Program-made: the position numbers and the translations under genes
Notes under the pieces: model-generated
The model's input: the letters and a program-made list of their open reading frames with translations, nothing else
Told to the model about the DNA's origin: nothing
Database searches by the model: none
Part shown: positions 7,743 through 20,000 of the stretch, in pieces
How the letters are laid out: every line of letters begins with the position of its first letter
How positions within the stretch are numbered: the stretch's first letter is position 1
IMG/VR virus record: IMGVR_UViG_3300025598_000032
DNA length: 20,000 nucleotides
Source: an uncultured virus (IMG/VR IMGVR_UViG_3300025598_000032)
Lineage: Duplodnaviria; Heunggongvirae; Uroviricota; Caudoviricetes
Strand: one strand, 5' to 3'

Positions 7743-8048
7743 ATGAAAGATCAAGAAGATATTGTTCAGTTAATTTTGGACAGATATTTGTTGTGTCCAC
7801 AGATTAAAGATTACACCTGCGACTTATGGTGGAAGCACGACGATTGTTTAGTACTATGGCAGTTACTATATGAAATCAACCCAAAAATATACCCTAAGCC
7901 TCCAGTTGAGGATAATTGGCATATTAAAAAAATGGATTTAATGAAAGCTAGTATACAAAAAGTAATGTACGAAAATGCAGAATTGTTTGATAAACTTGGT
8001 TCTGATTATGATGAAAACGGGATACCTTACTGGGAGAAGAATGATTGA
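7743..8048 (+). CDS. Hypothetical protein
   Basis: 101 aa ORF directly after the promoter. Confidence 0.7.
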   Translation: MKDQEDIVQLILDRYLLCPQIKDYTCDLWWKHDDCLVLWQLLYEINPKIYPKPPVEDNWHIKKMDLMKASIQKVMYENAELFDKLGSDYDENGIPYWEKND

Positions 8049-8475
8049 CTTTCAAGCCGAATCTAAAAGATCTGGCGATAAGTTTGAAGACTTAGTATAT
8101 AAAGATTTAATTAATCGTGAATATATTGATTTAAAAAAGAATTTTGATATTCCTGAAATTGGCATTCAAGTTGATTTTTTTGGCGACTATGGCCATTATA
8201 TTGAAGCAAAAGGCGGGGCAGAAGGCGATAAAAAGCGTCCAGGGGCTAAGAGAACAGATAATGTTAAAAAAGCAATTGCTAATGGAGCATTATTAAAAAA
8301 AGTAAACGCTAACGCATATTACATTGTTTATTTTTCATCTTATCCAGTTGAAGGTAGCTCGTCAGACAAAATGTTAAAAGCTGCTTTAAAATATAATTTT
8401 ATTGATGAAATTAGATATTTACAATTAGAAGATGATGATGTAGAATATACATTGTTTGATGAATGGATTAATTAA
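8041..8475 (+). CDS. PD-(D/E)XK restriction-endonuclease-fold protein
   Basis: SGDKFE...VDF...IEAKGG...RTDNVKKAIANG; likely start ATG 8041 after GGGAGAAG. Confidence 0.7.
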   Translation: MIDFQAESKRSGDKFEDLVYKDLINREYIDLKKNFDIPEIGIQVDFFGDYGHYIEAKGGAEGDKKRPGAKRTDNVKKAIANGALLKKVNANAYYIVYFSSYPVEGSSSDKMLKAALKYNFIDEIRYLQLEDDDVEYTLFDEWIN

Positions 8476-11538: not shown

Positions 11539-11675
11539 AGAAGAATGTAAGCATAAATGGACACTAGTTGCACAGCAAATGAAGTGCGATTATTGTGGTC
11601 AAATATACGAAGTAAAATGAGCGGAAAAGTAGGAGAAAATTAGGCGGGAATCCCTAAAGGATCTCGTCCAAATAC

Positions 11676-12460: not shown

Positions 12461-12514
12461 TTGTATACCTAACTTGGCTGACACCTGAACGCTAGGATTT
12501 TGTTCGAATACCTA

Positions 12515-12811
12515 TTATACCGACAGGTATTCGTTTGTGTCAAGTTCCATTCTTCCATATTCTCCCATTAGGCCCAACTCCTGCAGGGTGGTAAGCATGT
12601 ACTTGCACAAATCGTGTGATTCTTTTAGATATAGTGGGACCGTATGTGCGGTGCCCATTTGGATTATGTAGTTTGTAAACAATTGGATGAACGATTCGTT
12701 AACATAACGAGATTCATTTAACATATGTCTTGCCATTGCTGCAGGTGAGACATCGTTGTGTCCAAGGCCTTCTACAAGCTTTTTATATGTACGCTCTTCT
12801 AGTTTATTCAT
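12515..12811 (-). CDS. Hypothetical protein
   Basis: 98 aa ORF with GAGGAAG RBS. Confidence 0.75.
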   Translation of the reverse strand: MNKLEERTYKKLVEGLGHNDVSPAAMARHMLNESRYVNESFIQLFTNYIIQMGTAHTVPLYLKESHDLCKYMLTTLQELGLMGEYGRMELDTNEYLSV

Positions 12812-13118
12812 CTACTTCCTCGCCCTCATAGTCTTGGATAAAGTCTTCACGGGACAACCATTGTACTACATCATATTCTTCTACGTCAAATCCGCCCCAA
12901 GGATCTTTAATAAACTTATTCCATACATCCTCTAAAGTAGTTCCAGGAACTGGGATAAGTTCTCCCCAAGAAGAATCCCCGTCAGATAATTCAATATCTT
13001 GAAAGACATCACGGGTGATGTCCCACATGTACAATAGGACCAACGGGGCATGATTAGGAAACTCCCATTTTAGATTATCTAGATATGAATTGGTTTGTAC
13101 AAACATTGATGATGACAT
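12804..13118 (-). CDS. Acidic hypothetical protein
   Basis: 104 aa ORF with GAGGAG RBS. Confidence 0.75.
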   Translation of the reverse strand: MSSSMFVQTNSYLDNLKWEFPNHAPLVLLYMWDITRDVFQDIELSDGDSSWGELIPVPGTTLEDVWNKFIKDPWGGFDVEEYDVVQWLSREDFIQDYEGEEVDE

Positions 13119-14252: not shown

Positions 14253-14282
14253 ATTCTACTACATCAAGATATCAGATGTCAA
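14253..14282 (-). promoter_or_regulatory. SigA-type promoter
   Basis: TTGACA-N18-TAGAAT on the - strand. Confidence 0.7.
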
Positions 14283-14463: not shown

Positions 14464-14493
14464 ATTTTATCCTATCGTAAAAGGTTTTGTCAA
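14464..14493 (-). promoter_or_regulatory. SigA-type promoter
   Basis: TTGACA-N18-TAAAAT. Confidence 0.7.
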
Positions 14494-15083: not shown

Positions 15084-15151
15084 TATAGTATTCCTCCTAG
15101 TGCTATTACTGCGATTACAAAAATTGTGCCTAATAAAAATATGATTGCCAT
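15083..15151 (-). CDS. 22 aa hydrophobic leader peptide
   Basis: MAIIFLLGTIFVIAVIALGGIL; ATG 6 nt after the -10 box, TAATG-coupled to the next gene. Confidence 0.5.
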   Translation of the reverse strand: MAIIFLLGTIFVIAVIALGGIL

Positions 15152-15157
15152 TTGCGT

Positions 15158-15198
15158 ATCCTATCAGATAAGGGGAGGGAAGTCAAGACTTCCCTCCC
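15158..15198 (-). promoter_or_regulatory. Hairpin fused to a SigA-type promoter
   Basis: GGGAGGGAAGTC-TT-GACTTCCCTCCC inverted repeat containing TTGACT-N17-TAGGAT. Confidence 0.7.
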
Positions 15199-15668: not shown

Positions 15669-15698
15669 ATTCTAACACAAGCGGGGTGCTTATGTCAA
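15669..15698 (-). promoter_or_regulatory. SigA-type promoter
   Basis: TTGACA-N18-TAGAAT with TG extension. Confidence 0.75.
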
Positions 15699-15967
15699 TT
15701 CTTTCGGCGTGTCTGAATTGGTCTATGTGTCCTAGCATATTGGACTTCGTGCTTAGGGGCATCTGGTGTGATTGGTTTATGATTAAAAGCACTTAGGATT
15801 TTACCGCCAAAGGCTGTAATTATTCTAGCTAACTTCATCTCATCAGCACAAGTAATCTCTACCTGCATCCCACCCAGCATCTCATATTCAATTCCAGCGG
15901 TTAGGCATTTGCTAATCCCGTTCGCCATACGAGCAGGGGACGGGACTTCAATAACTGCTACTGCCAT
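15695..15967 (-). CDS. Hypothetical protein
   Basis: 90 aa with GAGGAG RBS, TAATG-coupled. Confidence 0.75.
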   Translation of the reverse strand: MAVAVIEVPSPARMANGISKCLTAGIEYEMLGGMQVEITCADEMKLARIITAFGGKILSAFNHKPITPDAPKHEVQYARTHRPIQTRRKN

Positions 15968-16608
15968 TAGTATTGCTCCTCTACTCGGTCTACATCAAAG
16001 TCGTGAACTGTGATTTCTCCACCATAGGCATCTACTGTGAGATTATTGCGAACAAGGTCTTCAACATCATATTCGCCTTCACGCATATCAACTTCGATAG
16101 TCATATTGACATTGACCCAAGCGGTTACTTCGATTTCCTTAGTTAGTGGAACATCAAAAATATCAGCAATTTTTTCAAGTGTGTCTTGGTCTTCTGAATC
16201 GTGAAATACATCATTTAGCAAAGTGCGTAGTTTTGACTCTTTGAGATACCAATTATTTTGTTGCTCTGTAAGGCTCTCATAGTTACGGCGGGATTGAGCA
16301 AGAGCCCACTCAATATCAGTTACCTTATCAGTAATATATTCAGTATTACCATCAGTAATCTTCTTATATGTAACCAACATATTTGGGTTATAAAGTTCAG
16401 CGATTGTTGTTTCCATAGTTTGTTCTTCTTTCTTTTGAGTTGGGTATATTGTAGCATCTACCACTGACATCAGAGTTAGACGCTCATAGCATTTAGAACA
16501 AATCTCGCTATGTGGATGACCATTAGATTTAATAGTCATCTCAATATGTGCATCGCAATTTGGGCATACATAATCCCATTTGAACCAAGTTTCTTTTACA
16601 TTTTCCAT
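15967..16608 (-). CDS. Hypothetical protein with N-terminal Zn ribbon; probable second in-frame start at 16416
   Basis: CPNC...CSKC; internal promoter and purine-rich RBS before ATG 16416. Confidence 0.75.
   Translation of the reverse strand: MENVKETWFKWDYVCPNCDAHIEMTIKSNGHPHSEICSKCYERLTLMSVVDATIYPTQKKEEQTMETTIAELYNPNMLVTYKKITDGNTEYITDKVTDIEWALAQSRRNYESLTEQQNNWYLKESKLRTLLNDVFHDSEDQDTLEKIADIFDVPLTKEIEVTAWVNVNMTIEVDMREGEYDVEDLVRNNLTVDAYGGEITVHDFDVDRVEEQY
16448..16469 (-). promoter_or_regulatory. RecA-NDp/PafBC-type promoter (copy 1, intragenic)
   Basis: TGTCAGTG-GTAGATGC-TACAAT. Confidence 0.7.
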
Positions 16609-16616
16609 AGGTGAGT

Positions 16617-16645
16617 ATTATAGCAAGTTACCCATGAGTAATCAA
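16617..16645 (-). promoter_or_regulatory. SigA-type promoter
   Basis: TTGATT-N17-TATAAT with TG extension; ATG 8 nt downstream. Confidence 0.65.
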
Positions 16646-16649
16646 TTTA

Positions 16650-16775
16650 GACACGCAGACAAATCGGACATATCGGTCATCCGTAAATGTGTTTATAATC
16701 ACATCCGTAAAGACTTGACATTATGGATTTTATGGGGCCAGCCCGCCCCAGCTGTTTTGTCAACTCGACACGCCG
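16650..16775. repeat. Composite intergenic element, copy A
   Basis: GACAAATCGGACATAT; TGTGT-N6-TCACA (16688); CCGTAA; TTGACA; GGGCCAGCC (16735); GTCAACTCGACACGCCG (16759). Confidence 0.8.
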
Positions 16776-16795
16776 TGATGACCATTTAAACTTTG

Positions 16796-16869
16796 CGATT
16801 CCAACGGGACTTGAACCCGCAACCTCTACCGTGACAGGGTAGCGATCTAACCAATTGATCTATGGAATC
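16796..16869 (-). tRNA. trnD: tRNA-Asp(GUC)
   Basis: On - strand: acceptor GATTCCA/TGGAATC, D arm GATC/GATC, anticodon arm CTACC-CTGTCAC-GGTAG, T arm GCGGG-TTCAAGT-CCCGT, discriminator G. Confidence 0.95.
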
Positions 16870-16876
16870 AAGAGAG

Positions 16877-16898
16877 GTGAGGGGCTTTCGCCCCTCAC
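16877..16898 (-). terminator. GAAA-loop hairpin between DUF932 and tRNA-Asp
   Basis: GTGAGGGGC-GAAA-GCCCCTCAC with a weak U tail (CTCTCTT). Confidence 0.6.
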
Positions 16899-16904
16899 AA
16901 TTTA

Positions 16905-17945
16905 TTAAGCGGTAAGTGCAAGAACCTGCTTAACAATTTTATTTTTTTCTGCTGTGATAACAGGGTCAAATCCGCTTGCACCTGCCATTAGCGAATCGCT
17001 GTTTCCCTTGCGGGCTGTGCGATAGTAATCAAGGCGTTCGGTTAGAGCATTTACAACGCCCCATGCTGTACCCTTGATATTAGCATTAGTAGGAGAGTTA
17101 TGGTAAAGGTCATCAAGCAGAACAACCTTGTTTTCCCACTTCTTGATTGAACCCTTAACATCTGCCTCTGGCTTAGGATACATCTTGTTAATGATTTCGC
17201 TAAACTTAGCATTTGTCACTTCACGAGAGAAAAGTTCTTTTGCTTGTGTTTCGAATTCATCCATGTACGCAAGAGTTAGACCTAGAGTCTCACGAGCAGC
17301 AGCAATTTTTCCATCTACTGTCTGAGTGTGGCGAATCTTGAAAGATTGCTTAGCCTTACGCATAGCGAAATTAAGAGTGTTTTGACACATAACACGAACA
17401 GGGGTAATTGCAGATTGAACCGCAACTGAACCATCGTGTGAAGTGTAAACTACGAGATAAAGATTGGTAGTGTCATTAGCACCATTAGGGTCAAGAACCA
17501 TAGTGCGGGGAATTGACATTGTGCCAAATACAACACGACCATTCTTTAGAGAACCTGCACTTTCCCAATTTACATCAGGGTTTCCATCATGTAGGTTATC
17601 TGCAAAAGAAAAGAGTTCTTCATTCTGAACAGCCTTATAGCGTGAGCCTACAACTGAGAGAACATCTTTTTGTCCTGCTGTGTAAGGGTTATCACGAACA
17701 ACCAAAAAATTCTCGCTAACAGAATCATAGTTGTCTGGCAATAAATCTGAAACAGACTCAAGAGAAACATTCCAATTTGAGAGTTTAGCAGCATCTAGCA
17801 TTTGTGCGGTTGTGACTTGCTCATCCTTAGCAAATACCTTGTTAGCAAAAGAGTGCCATGCAGGATTTGTGCGAAGTGATACAGCAAGAGATACAGAACC
17901 ATCCTCAACTTCTGAGCGATGAACCTGTGACATTGGGTTAGTCAT
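16905..17945 (-). CDS. DUF932 (TIGR03299 phage/plasmid-like) protein
   Basis: PAWH, LSNWNV, VVG.RY..VQNEELF, ESAGSL.NGR, SHDGS, TPVRVMCQNTL, IRHT, GTAWG..NA.TE..D. Confidence 0.92.
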   Translation of the reverse strand: MTNPMSQVHRSEVEDGSVSLAVSLRTNPAWHSFANKVFAKDEQVTTAQMLDAAKLSNWNVSLESVSDLLPDNYDSVSENFLVVRDNPYTAGQKDVLSVVGSRYKAVQNEELFSFADNLHDGNPDVNWESAGSLKNGRVVFGTMSIPRTMVLDPNGANDTTNLYLVVYTSHDGSVAVQSAITPVRVMCQNTLNFAMRKAKQSFKIRHTQTVDGKIAAARETLGLTLAYMDEFETQAKELFSREVTNAKFSEIINKMYPKPEADVKGSIKKWENKVVLLDDLYHNSPTNANIKGTAWGVVNALTERLDYYRTARKGNSDSLMAGASGFDPVITAEKNKIVKQVLALTA

Positions 17946-17976
17946 ATTTTTTCCTTCTTTCTGTTAATGTATGCCT

Positions 17977-17998
17977 ATTCTAGCAGATAAGGCTGACA
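17977..17998 (-). promoter_or_regulatory. RecA-NDp/PafBC-type promoter (copy 2)
   Basis: TGTCAG-CCTTATCTGC-TAGAAT, 31 nt upstream of the DUF932 ATG. Confidence 0.7.
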
Positions 17999-18029
17999 TC
18001 TGTCTACCCGTAAAGCCTAAGTTAAATAA

Positions 18030-18152
18030 TGATTTGTCTGATATGTCCGTTTTGTCCCCGCCCATTCCATGTGATTAAAATCACGCCCCGTAAACGGCGT
18101 GTCGGCTTGACGGGCCAGCCCAAAAATCAACGGTTGTCAACTCGACACACCG
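18030..18152. repeat. Composite intergenic element, copy B
   Basis: ATATGTCCGTTTTGTC; TGTGA-TTAAAA-TCACG (18070); CCCCGTAA; CGGCGTGTCGGCTTGAC; GGGCCAGCC (18112); GTCAACTCGACACACCG (18136). Confidence 0.85.
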
Positions 18153-18155
18153 CAT

Positions 18156-18245
18156 TTAAAAATCTTTTTTAGAAAATATAAAATAAAAAATGCATGCGAT
18201 AGCGAATGCAGATCCATAGACCAATACATATGCTACCGCTTGCAT
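18156..18245 (-). CDS. 29 aa single-TM peptide (not in ORF track)
   Basis: MQAVAYVLVYGSAFAIACIFYFIFSKKDF; GGTGGGG RBS-like sequence upstream. Confidence 0.55.
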   Translation of the reverse strand: MQAVAYVLVYGSAFAIACIFYFIFSKKDF

Positions 18246-18267
18246 TTTATTCCCCACCCAAGTTAAA

Positions 18268-18483
18268 TTAATTTAATACGGACCAATAGCTAATTCCAAG
18301 CTCGTCGCTGCAGTAACGTGCAACGTCGCTATGAGCTGTTTCATTATAAAAATATTTAACACGTTGGCCCTTGATCATGACCTTGAAAAAAATATCATCG
18401 TTACCGTCTTGATAAATTTTGCATTGATCATCTGCAAATACAGAATGCCATTGTGCACTGTTGACTGGTGGATGCTTTGCCAT
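18268..18483 (-). CDS. Hypothetical protein
   Basis: 71 aa with AGGAG RBS. Confidence 0.75.
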   Translation of the reverse strand: MAKHPPVNSAQWHSVFADDQCKIYQDGNDDIFFKVMIKGQRVKYFYNETAHSDVARYCSDELGISYWSVLN

Positions 18484-18642
18484 TTATTTAATCTCCTGTG
18501 CATAGTGCATTGCTTTGCCTAATGCGTCTTCTCTTGAGTTGGTATACTTTTTAATTACCTTGCCATTCTTCATGACCACGGCATAGCCGTTGAGGTCCTC
18601 ATGAACCTCAACGCCGTTAATTGTTGCATATGGTGCTGACAT
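18484..18642 (-). CDS. 52 aa hypothetical protein (not in ORF track)
   Basis: MSAPYATINGVEVHED...; GAGGTG RBS, TAATG-coupled. Confidence 0.65.
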   Translation of the reverse strand: MSAPYATINGVEVHEDLNGYAVVMKNGKVIKKYTNSREDALGKAMHYAQEIK

Positions 18643-19115
18643 TACGCCACCTCTTCAATTAAAATATTTGGCTCTTCGGTGATAGTATCCACAACTGAAG
18701 AATGCAATTCATTACGCATTCTAGTTAATTCGGAACCTGGCCAACCTGCTGAAAGAATTCTCTTCGCAAGTTTCATGAGATTATAATCAGGATTATTTTT
18801 TTCTGCAATTTCTAGCAGAGACTTAGCCAAGTCTGTGTTGCCTTGTTCAATATGATACATTGCAGAAATTGTGTCATATGCATATCCTTCTCGTGCATTA
18901 GTTACTCGTGAAAGATAGTTGACAAAATCAACGCATACCTGCATACCATAATCGGACGGGAGCCCAAGGAAGTAATCACGAATCTGCAAGTCATTATTTA
19001 CGGCATAGGTAATCGTTAATAGCATATCATCAGAGACTTCAATCTCGTTGATAAATTGTTCAATTGCGAAATCAATTGTATCTTTGGCTTCGCCACGGGT
19101 TAGGGTTGTTGTCAT
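18642..19115 (-). CDS. DUF4192-like actinobacterial protein (C-terminal helical part)
   Basis: DLQIRDY.L...G...LA...L..A...NPDY.L..L....L.AGWP; start is 19115 or 19127. Confidence 0.6.
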   Translation of the reverse strand: MTTTLTRGEAKDTIDFAIEQFINEIEVSDDMLLTITYAVNNDLQIRDYFLGLPSDYGMQVCVDFVNYLSRVTNAREGYAYDTISAMYHIEQGNTDLAKSLLEIAEKNNPDYNLMKLAKRILSAGWPGSELTRMRNELHSSVVDTITEEPNILIEEVA

Positions 19116-19116
19116 G

Positions 19117-19251
19117 TTAGTTTCCATTCTTTGGTTGGGTTAAGGATGTTATTGTAGCAGGCACCACTGACATTTGCCATGTGGCTTTCTTGAAATTATC
19201 CCAAAGGGTATCCATTTCATTAAATAGATCTTGAGCAGACTTGTCAGACAT
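19117..19251 (-). CDS. 44 aa hypothetical protein overlapping a promoter
   Basis: TAATG-coupled ORF MSDKSAQDLF...MSVVPATI... Confidence 0.45.
   Translation of the reverse strand: MSDKSAQDLFNEMDTLWDNFKKATWQMSVVPATITSLTQPKNGN
19151..19172 (-). promoter_or_regulatory. RecA-NDp/PafBC-type promoter (copy 3)
   Basis: TGTCAGTG-GTGCCTGC-TACAAT. Confidence 0.72.
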
Positions 19252-19442
19252 TATTCCCCCTCATCATATTCTAAAGATAGCGGGAAGGAATCAGACTCCA
19301 TTTCCGCCATCTGATAATAGCACTCAGGGCAGACATAATCATCGCCATAGATATCATACTCTTCTTCAGAGTAGAATACTTCGCTTGTACCGCATACTTC
19401 ATAGTATAGGCAGGCTACTTCAAAAATAGTTTCATTAGTCAT
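19251..19442 (-). CDS. Small acidic Zn-finger protein
   Basis: Start reassigned to ATG 19442 (TAATG, GAGG RBS); C.YYEVC...CPEC. Confidence 0.7.
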   Translation of the reverse strand: MTNETIFEVACLYYEVCGTSEVFYSEEEYDIYGDDYVCPECYYQMAEMESDSFPLSLEYDEGE

Positions 19443-19669
19443 TATTTGACCTCTTCTAGTGTTAGGCAAAGTGGGTTGCACTCGCAATAATCAAAATCAA
19501 AATCACCATCTGGAGATACCCATCCAGTAATTCCTTGACCATAGCAGTTATCGCAGGACTTGAAGATACACTCCCAGCAAGTAGAATCGGAAGTATAGGG
19601 AGCGTCATATACTGAAATATCAGATAAACGCTTATTGCAATCTTTGCAATATGTGGCAACAGTAGACAT
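19442..19669 (-). CDS. Cys-rich Zn-finger protein
   Basis: CKDC, CWEC, CDNC.G.G..GW.SPDGDFDFDYCECNP; AAGAAAGGGG RBS. Confidence 0.75.
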   Translation of the reverse strand: MSTVATYCKDCNKRLSDISVYDAPYTSDSTCWECIFKSCDNCYGQGITGWVSPDGDFDFDYCECNPLCLTLEEVK

Positions 19670-19699
19670 TTAATGCCCCTTTCTTTTCTTGATATCGGA

Positions 19700-19721
19700 A
19701 GTATAGCAGAACCCACTGACA
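19700..19721 (-). promoter_or_regulatory. RecA-NDp/PafBC-type promoter (copy 4)
   Basis: TGTCAGTG-GGTTCTGC-TATACT, 30 nt upstream of ATG 19669. Confidence 0.72.
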
Positions 19722-19732
19722 TTATCTAGTTG

Positions 19733-19817
19733 TACCCGCCAGTATTTGGGAGATTAAAATCACACCCCGTAATCGGCGTGTCGAGTTGACAGGGGCCAGC
19801 CGCACTCGGGCGTGTCG
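19733..19817. repeat. Composite intergenic element, copy C
   Basis: GGAGA-TTAAAA-TCACA (19749); CCCCGTAA; CGGCGTGTCGAGTTGAC (19774); GGGCCAGCC (19793); extra GGCGTGTCG (19809). Confidence 0.85.
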
Positions 19818-19842
19818 CATAGCTATGCAATGTTATAAATAT

Positions 19843-19953: not shown

Positions 19954-20000
19954 TATTTTCTCCCGCAATTTCACGACACTTCTCACATTCTGATTCTATT

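Follow-up and report, generated by a model that had tools for sequence, protein, structure and literature searches.

The subject of this report is a group of predicted promoters in a 20,000-nucleotide (nt) stretch of DNA, referred to below as the window, of the uncultured lake virus IMGVR_UViG_3300025598_000032; the window corresponds to bases 59691-79690, reversed, of a 108,356-bp IMG/VR virus record with 36% G+C and a completeness rating of 100%. The predicted promoters, four in the window and nine together with one variant in the phage, stand at the head of small genes, most of them of unknown function, in a 7-kb block and carry a box that closely resembles the recognition element of PafBC, an activator of the bacterial DNA-damage response. 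The best-supported mechanism, which we regard as moderately probable on the sequences compared here, is that PafBC of the host reads the phage boxes and controls the block.

The pattern TGTCAGNNNNNNNNGCTANNNT (TGTCAG-N8-GC-TANNNT) has exactly four matches in the window, all on the minus strand, while shuffled sequence gave a mean of 0.01 and none of 200 shuffles reached four. The looser TGTCRG-N10-TANNNT recovered the identical four sites (0.40 expected; four reached in 2 of 200 shuffles). An earlier note on this DNA had claimed four co-oriented sites, three of them with a common start, at about 25-35 nt before an ATG, and all of this was borne out. Three sites begin with TGTCAGTG and the remaining one with TGTCAGCC; the ATG is separated from the final T of the -10 box by 31 nt (ATG 19669), 24 nt (19127), 32 nt (17945, the DUF932 gene) and 32 nt (16416), and a AAGAAAGG-type ribosome site precedes the ATG in all four cases. 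The predicted PafBC-type box at 19700-19721 (minus) reads TGTCAGTGGGTTCTGCTATACT and consists of a -26 element, a 10-nt spacer with TG and a -10 box. The other boxes, also minus, are TGTCAGTGGTGCCTGCTACAAT at 19151-19172, TGTCAGCCTTATCTGCTAGAAT at 17977-17998 before the DUF932 gene, and TGTCAGTGGTAGATGCTACAAT at 16448-16469, which is located within the long reading frame 15967-16608.

The window contains only part of the array. In the whole genome TGTC[AG]G-N10-TANNNT has 13 matches on both strands, 11 of them on the plus strand, and 9 of these 11 fall within 56.4-63.3 kb (record coordinates); a TGTCGT variant is the tenth site of the same 7-kb block, which in total holds nine exact boxes and one variant. 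Five exact boxes and the variant are situated just past window position 20000 (genome 56462-59392). Each of the ten block sites is followed by a ribosome site and then by the ATG of a small gene, the GTC triplet is present in all ten, and the block opens with a promoter of the TGTCAG type.

The TGTCAG promoters are a class apart from the other promoters of the phage, since the genes that follow on the same strand have canonical TTGACA-N17/18-TAnAAT promoters and those of the opposite strand TTGACA or plain extended -10 promoters. That TTGACA-type promoters are found nearer the convergence gap, as was also claimed earlier, is correct: five predicted ones occur on the minus strand from 15698 down to 12514. 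The second promoter class of this strand starts with TTGACA-18-TAGAAT at 15669-15698 and continues with TTGACT-17-TAGGAT with a TG extension (15158-15186), a TTGACA-18 promoter (14464-14493), TTGACA-18-TAGAAT (14253-14282) and TTGACA-18-TATAAT (12514-12543). Replication and structural operons of the opposite strand have TTGACA or plain extended -10 promoters.

The array is conserved in a whole family of phages. In 80 related viral loci retrieved by the DUF932 protein (54-100% identity, 913,333 bases), TGTC[AG]G-N10-TANNNT was counted 959 times on the strand of the genes but only twice on the opposite strand, with a median of 12.5 boxes per locus. The consensus of 806 unique sites is aA-TGTCAG-T-S-S-N4-(c/a)TGnTAtAAT. 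When the box was not preselected, the gene strand gave 915 unique extended -10 matches, of which 455 had TGTC[AG]G at the exact place, and the extended -10 matches of the other strand had no such hexamer. TGTCAG itself was counted 1063 times on the gene strand, 807 of them 10 nt before TAnAnT, against 73 on the other strand; the gap to TAnAnT equals 10 nt in 807 of 835 pairs. Of the 80 loci, 77 have an exact box in the 150 nt before the DUF932 gene, and three have TGTCAC instead. Three complete relatives again show a single co-oriented block, of 7-11 kb, which contains 14 of 16, 9 of 10 and 17 of 18 matches, respectively. Position 5 of the box is A in 672 of 740 unique boxes of the family. One relative (G838, behind locus L081) has TGTCGG, not TGTCAG, in four of nine boxes at 19474-21926, and this lineage may have adapted to a host with the G-form box.

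According to PMC8635444, the in vivo consensus of PafBC is tGTCgg(N10)tA(N3)T, the helix-turn-helix (HTH) of PafB contacts positions -23 to -28 (the "-26 element"), the promoters possess a canonical -10 box without -35, and the guanines of GTC, read by R46 and R50 of PafB, are almost invariant across actinobacteria. The motif known as RecA-NDp is the PafBC motif (PMC6789036). In the phages TGTCAG is placed at -28 to -23, counted from the -10 box, and the extended -10 box is TGnTAnAAT; the bipartite 22-nt PafBC motif is found in all four window sites and in nine sites of the block. In sequence and geometry the phage element therefore agrees exactly with the PafBC box, apart from position 5, which is A and not G. 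The -35 positions of the 806 sites carry at most 0.22 bit, and the class as a whole has no TTGACA-like hexamer 16-18 nt before the -10 box, as canonical sigma-A promoters do. The claim that no site has a canonical -35 therefore stands for the class but needs one correction, as the site at 17977, alone among the window sites, has TAGACA (5 of 6 bases of TTGACA) at 18-nt spacing.

With regard to known PafBC-dependent promoters (RecA-NDp, recA P1-type), the likeness (PMC8635444, PMC6789036, PMC11804915) includes the GTC core, the 10-nt gap, TAnnnT, the element at -28 to -23, the absence of -35 and a -10 box of the housekeeping sigma-A type in both. The differences are also clear. The phage boxes form an array of 9-17 in a lytic-type genome before small genes of unknown function, whereas the known promoters serve DNA repair; moreover, position 5 is A (91%) and not G, the -10 box is near consensus with a TG extension, and PafBC dependence is here a prediction.

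In the proposed mechanism the PafB-PafC heterodimer of the host would read the TGTCAG element of the phage promoters. PafBC sits between region 4 of sigma-A and the DNA ("sigma adaptation"; PMC8635444) and is active on binding single-stranded DNA (ssDNA), short ssDNA activating PafBC-dependent transcription in vitro (PMC11804915). The block would be switched on, or boosted, once ssDNA appears in the infected cell, the source of which might be phage replication or recombination, breakdown of host DNA, or earlier damage such as that caused by ultraviolet (UV) light. All other parts of the genome, including the genes further downstream on this strand, use ordinary sigma-A promoters. The canonical promoters of the same strand are expected to fire first, and therefore the TGTCAG class could be delayed-early or middle, switched on when ssDNA appears, as well as early. 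Promoter activity, PafBC dependence, the ssDNA trigger, the timing and the identity of the host are what we infer.

The phage is an actinophage on sequence grounds, because it encodes WhiB (Pfam) and has a portal with about 53% identity to portals of Streptomyces BE-cluster phages. No factor that could read the boxes was recognised in it: when the complete record was searched in six frames, no match to WYL or to the PafC-type HTH was obtained at E up to 1, and Pfam scans of 159 reading frames found no sigma factor, HTH or WYL domain. It had been proposed that the switch is either the ssDNA/DNA-damage sensor of the host or a WYL activator of the phage itself; the second option falls, as neither a WYL nor a PafC-type domain was found in the phage, and a phage-encoded PafBC-like activator is likewise ruled out by these searches. 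The first option gains support from a conserved promoter class with the published sequence and spacing of the PafBC box and from a plausible host lineage which possesses PafBC.

Candidate hosts were sought in a phylum-wide sample of 401 Actinomycetota genomes and in a class-wide sample, also of 401 genomes. In the former the box signal is clear (in genome G001, for example, 54 matches against 0 in the reversed control) and the boxes mostly read TGTCGGTG. The phage-style TGTCAG-N7-TGNTANNNT led, in the class-wide sample, to about 20 small, mostly single-contig genomes of 1.3-1.5 Mb which have orthologous boxes in common, such as TGTCAGTGGCGCCTGCTACCTT. In two of them, G530 and G625, this box precedes recA (Pfam about 2e-143) and is immediately followed by a LexA-type box, TCGAACAGATGTTCGG; 18 of the 22 bases of this recA box are identical to the phage box at 19151. 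A second composite box of G530 stands before a DUF6504 gene and a DnaE2-type polymerase, the same layout being seen in G625 by reading frames only, and further boxes precede carD-ispDF and an OGG-like glycosylase. At the carD-ispDF loci (G530 C1:81501 and G625 C1:74767; L179, L183) a PafBC-type box with an extended -10, TGTCAG(C/T)GATGGCTGGTAGAAT, is located directly before the genes.

The composite TGTCRG-N10-TANNNT-N-CGAAC is present in 70 of the 81 sampled genomes of the order to which G530 belongs (1.2-2.2 Mb), with 115 matches against 4 in the reversed control. Tandem WYL genes were found in all five tested genomes of this order. In G530 they encode a WYL-WCX protein and an HTH_PafC-WYL-WCX protein and are followed by tatC; the former aligns to PafB of M. 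smegmatis (7p5x, E 4e-39) and keeps both GTC-reading arginines (ERMFERDK vs SRMFERDK). Counted by eye, 96 of the 115 boxes of the order have A at position 5, while 23 boxes have it among those listed for the phylum sample (about 150 rows), and all variants of positions 7-9 known from the phage (TGG, ACC, TGC, TCC, CCC) occur in boxes of the order. A new finding is that one large order of small-genome Actinomycetia possesses pafB-pafC and has TGTCAG-form boxes, each joined to a LexA box, upstream of recA and of a dnaE2-type cassette. We infer that the order is Ca. Nanopelagicales from the size range, the class and a G+C content of 44-52% at the fetched loci.

Other candidates were rejected. Genome G225 has pafBC and TGTCAG boxes, but its GC content is 64-67%. 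Genomes G010, G018, G148, G174 and G245 have no box before recA, four of the five are without a WYL match, and they represent orders of 5-6 genomes only. In G010, G018, G148 and G174 (1.3 Mb) neither a WYL match nor a recA box was seen; their recA loci have 37-47% GC, and G010 has a LexA box there. Genome G348, marked as unpublished, is not used for any of the claims made here.

Several observations weigh against control of the block by host PafBC. The sampled loci of the candidate hosts have 44-52% GC, compared to 36% in the phage. When window DNA was compared with the genomes of five candidate hosts, the only matches were to tRNA genes (73-85% identity); glutathione peroxidase of the phage reached at most 56% identity in genome contigs, with matches spread over several phyla, and its Cpn10 at most 44% among the 401 Actinomycetota, neither protein giving a host signal. 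No WYL match was obtained in four of the five other small low-GC actinobacterial genomes just named; PafBC is not universal in the phylum, and therefore a host without PafBC is possible. The Streptomyces phage Wofford (133 kb), the nearest of the cultured relatives compared, has no PafBC-type array, with 4 matches against 4 in the reversed control. Finally, the -10 box of the phage (TGnTAnAAT) is much nearer consensus than the host boxes (TACCTT, TACTTT), and other promoters of the phage appear to run on the extended -10 alone; the boxes may therefore fire without an activator.

This last point is the core of the rival explanation which survives best, although it is rather unlikely. It assumes self-sufficient extended -10 sigma-A promoters, working without -35 as other promoters of the phage seem to, the TGTCAG being read by an unrecognised phage protein (activator or repressor) or by another host factor, and the likeness to PafBC being convergent or partial. 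A novel regulator could be hidden among the genes of the block, nearly all of which are without a known family, and canonical TTGACA promoters of the same strand could express such a factor first. Such an explanation has to account for the match to the PafBC box in sequence, with a strict 10-nt spacing and an invariant GTC, and for phage box variants which mirror the boxes of recA and dnaE2 in the candidate hosts. It also disagrees with the absence of HTH, WYL and sigma domains from the 159 frames, with the empty six-frame searches for WYL and HTH_PafC, and with a block whose first promoter is already of the TGTCAG type.

According to another explanation, which is considered improbable, the boxes are mainly a sink: 10-17 strong PafBC sites in each genome, amplified as the phage replicates, would pull PafBC with RNA polymerase off the damage and defence genes of the host, and expression of the small genes would be of lesser importance. 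The density of boxes speaks for it (about 10 in 7 kb of the phage vs 1-4 per 1.3-1.5 Mb in the candidate hosts, the latter with the stricter TGTCAG-N7-TGNTANNNT), as do -10 boxes stronger than those of the host. The sink is nevertheless not favoured because almost every excess TGTCAG of the gene strand goes together with a -10 box and a gene (807 of 1063, with 73 on the other strand), and this coupling makes a pure decoy role unlikely. All boxes are followed by a gene that has a ribosome site, and the box of the DUF932 gene has kept its place in 77 of 80 loci, as is typical of working promoters and not of free decoys; promoter and sink roles could coexist. A chance or compositional artefact, with sites devoid of function, can be dismissed as next to impossible, since nothing except the low G+C of the phage favours it and four sites against 0.01 expected, 959 against 2 by strand and the fixed spacing already refute it.

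Among known systems, the middle promoters of phage T4 (a MotA box at -30 with AsiA, "sigma appropriation") are similar in that the -10 box is kept, the -35 is replaced by a factor-specific box and a protein is placed at region 4 of sigma (PMC8635444). In contrast, both T4 factors are phage-encoded and remodel sigma, while here no phage factor was found and the box is that of the host. There are phages that use LexA boxes to tie genes to the DNA-damage control of the host, and promoters of phi29 are bound by Spo0A of the host. These cases have in common with the present one that expression is tied to a host regulator which the phage does not encode. They differ in that they are repressor sites, mostly involved in the decision between lysogeny or dormancy and lysis, whereas here an activator-type promoter class is repeated in a large phage; no lysogeny genes were found in the Pfam scan of the phage reading frames. 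Among the papers listed by literature searches on PafBC or RecA-NDp together with phages, and on phages of Nanopelagicales, none deals with promoters of this type in phages; the earlier note was likewise not aware of a description. A link between pafBC and resistance to mycobacteriophages is the subject of an article (ACS Infect Dis 2025) cited in PMC12848934.

The closest cultured relatives are the Streptomyces BE-cluster phages (Stanwilliamsviridae: Wofford, Blueeyedbeauty), with portals about 53% identical and a DUF932/DUF945 gene in common; they likewise have a block of many small genes with an own spacer each. In Wofford (L191) the same 22-mer is found at 7755 and at record position 129548, that is at both record ends. 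The sequence of Wofford implies a terminal repeat of about 11 kb, which would hold the small-gene block including the DUF945/DUF932 homologue, and by analogy the same may apply to the lake phage, whose block would then be a terminal module for host takeover.

The genes which follow the window boxes are all on the minus strand. The first gene after box 19700 (19442-19669, 75 amino acids) has no Pfam or PHROG match. Box 19151 is followed by a gene of 161 amino acids (18642-19127) and box 17977 by the DUF932 gene of 346 amino acids (16905-17945); of the two labels given to them earlier, DUF932 is firm (Pfam PF06067, 5.1e-56; phrog_1221, 2.9e-102), while DUF4192-like is weak, with E 6.8e-4 and 20.1 bits, below the Pfam cut-off of 27.8 bits. 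After box 16448 a frame of 150 amino acids begins at an internal ATG (15967-16416), the frame being open up to 16608 (213 amino acids). The first 64 codons of this long frame (15967-16608, minus) form a zinc-ribbon-like piece, CxxC...CxxC, and box 16448 is followed by the in-frame ATG at 16416, which has a ribosome site of its own. The frame could give two gene products or contain an internal promoter. In its long form it matches a DpnI-type Pfam family weakly, below the cut-off. Almost no gene of the block has a known family in Pfam or PHROGs, and the comparison of 27 block genes with PHROGs gave matches to families of unknown function only.

Two of the four window boxes come directly after terminator-like hairpins with T-rich tails, one at 19761-19780 (minus), just upstream of box 19700, and one at 18082-18101 (minus), upstream of box 17977. 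Between the DUF932 gene and the next promoter there is a tRNA-Asp (GTC) at 16795-16869 (minus). The spacers upstream of the boxes contain the repeated word GGCGTGTCGAGTTGAC in both orientations, often beside GGCTGGCCC, at window positions 16720-16780, 18090-18160 and 19770-19830 and in L007 at 6778, 8225, 8846, 11537 and 12914. Other spacer repeats, GACAAATCGGACAT and GGACATTTACG, are located in L007 at 11635-11656, 13012-13033, 8266-8300 and 15130-15164 (families D16, I22). A CRP/GlxR-like palindrome, TGTGATTAAAATCACG (window 18070-18085), overlaps the hairpin upstream of the DUF932 promoter, and a similar palindrome is situated near 16690. The window differs from the genome record by one base, at window 11724.

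In a wider form, which is proposed tentatively and with slightly less than even confidence, an abundant family of lake phages cedes one class of its genes to the ssDNA alarm of the host, using PafBC sigma adaptation to sense its own replication or UV damage and to fire probable takeover or anti-defence genes, a drain of PafBC from the repair and defence regulon of the host being possible at high copy number. PafBC and sigma adaptation have so far been known only as a bacterial DNA-damage response, and, if true, this would be the first natural use of a host sigma-adaptor promoter class by a virus. If phages carry such arrays, the ssDNA alarm doubles as a timing and sensing device of the phage. 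Compact and strong natural PafBC boxes are ready test substrates for the mechanism of sigma adaptation. The flavour of the box (TGTCAG with its variants of positions 7-9) may mark the hosts of uncultured actinophages, hosts which are largely without CRISPR (clustered regularly interspaced short palindromic repeats) spacers. The unknown small genes under this control are a candidate store of host-takeover and anti-defence functions, and the infection dynamics of highly abundant freshwater bacteria would, if the proposal is true, be linked to DNA damage, for example by UV in daylight.

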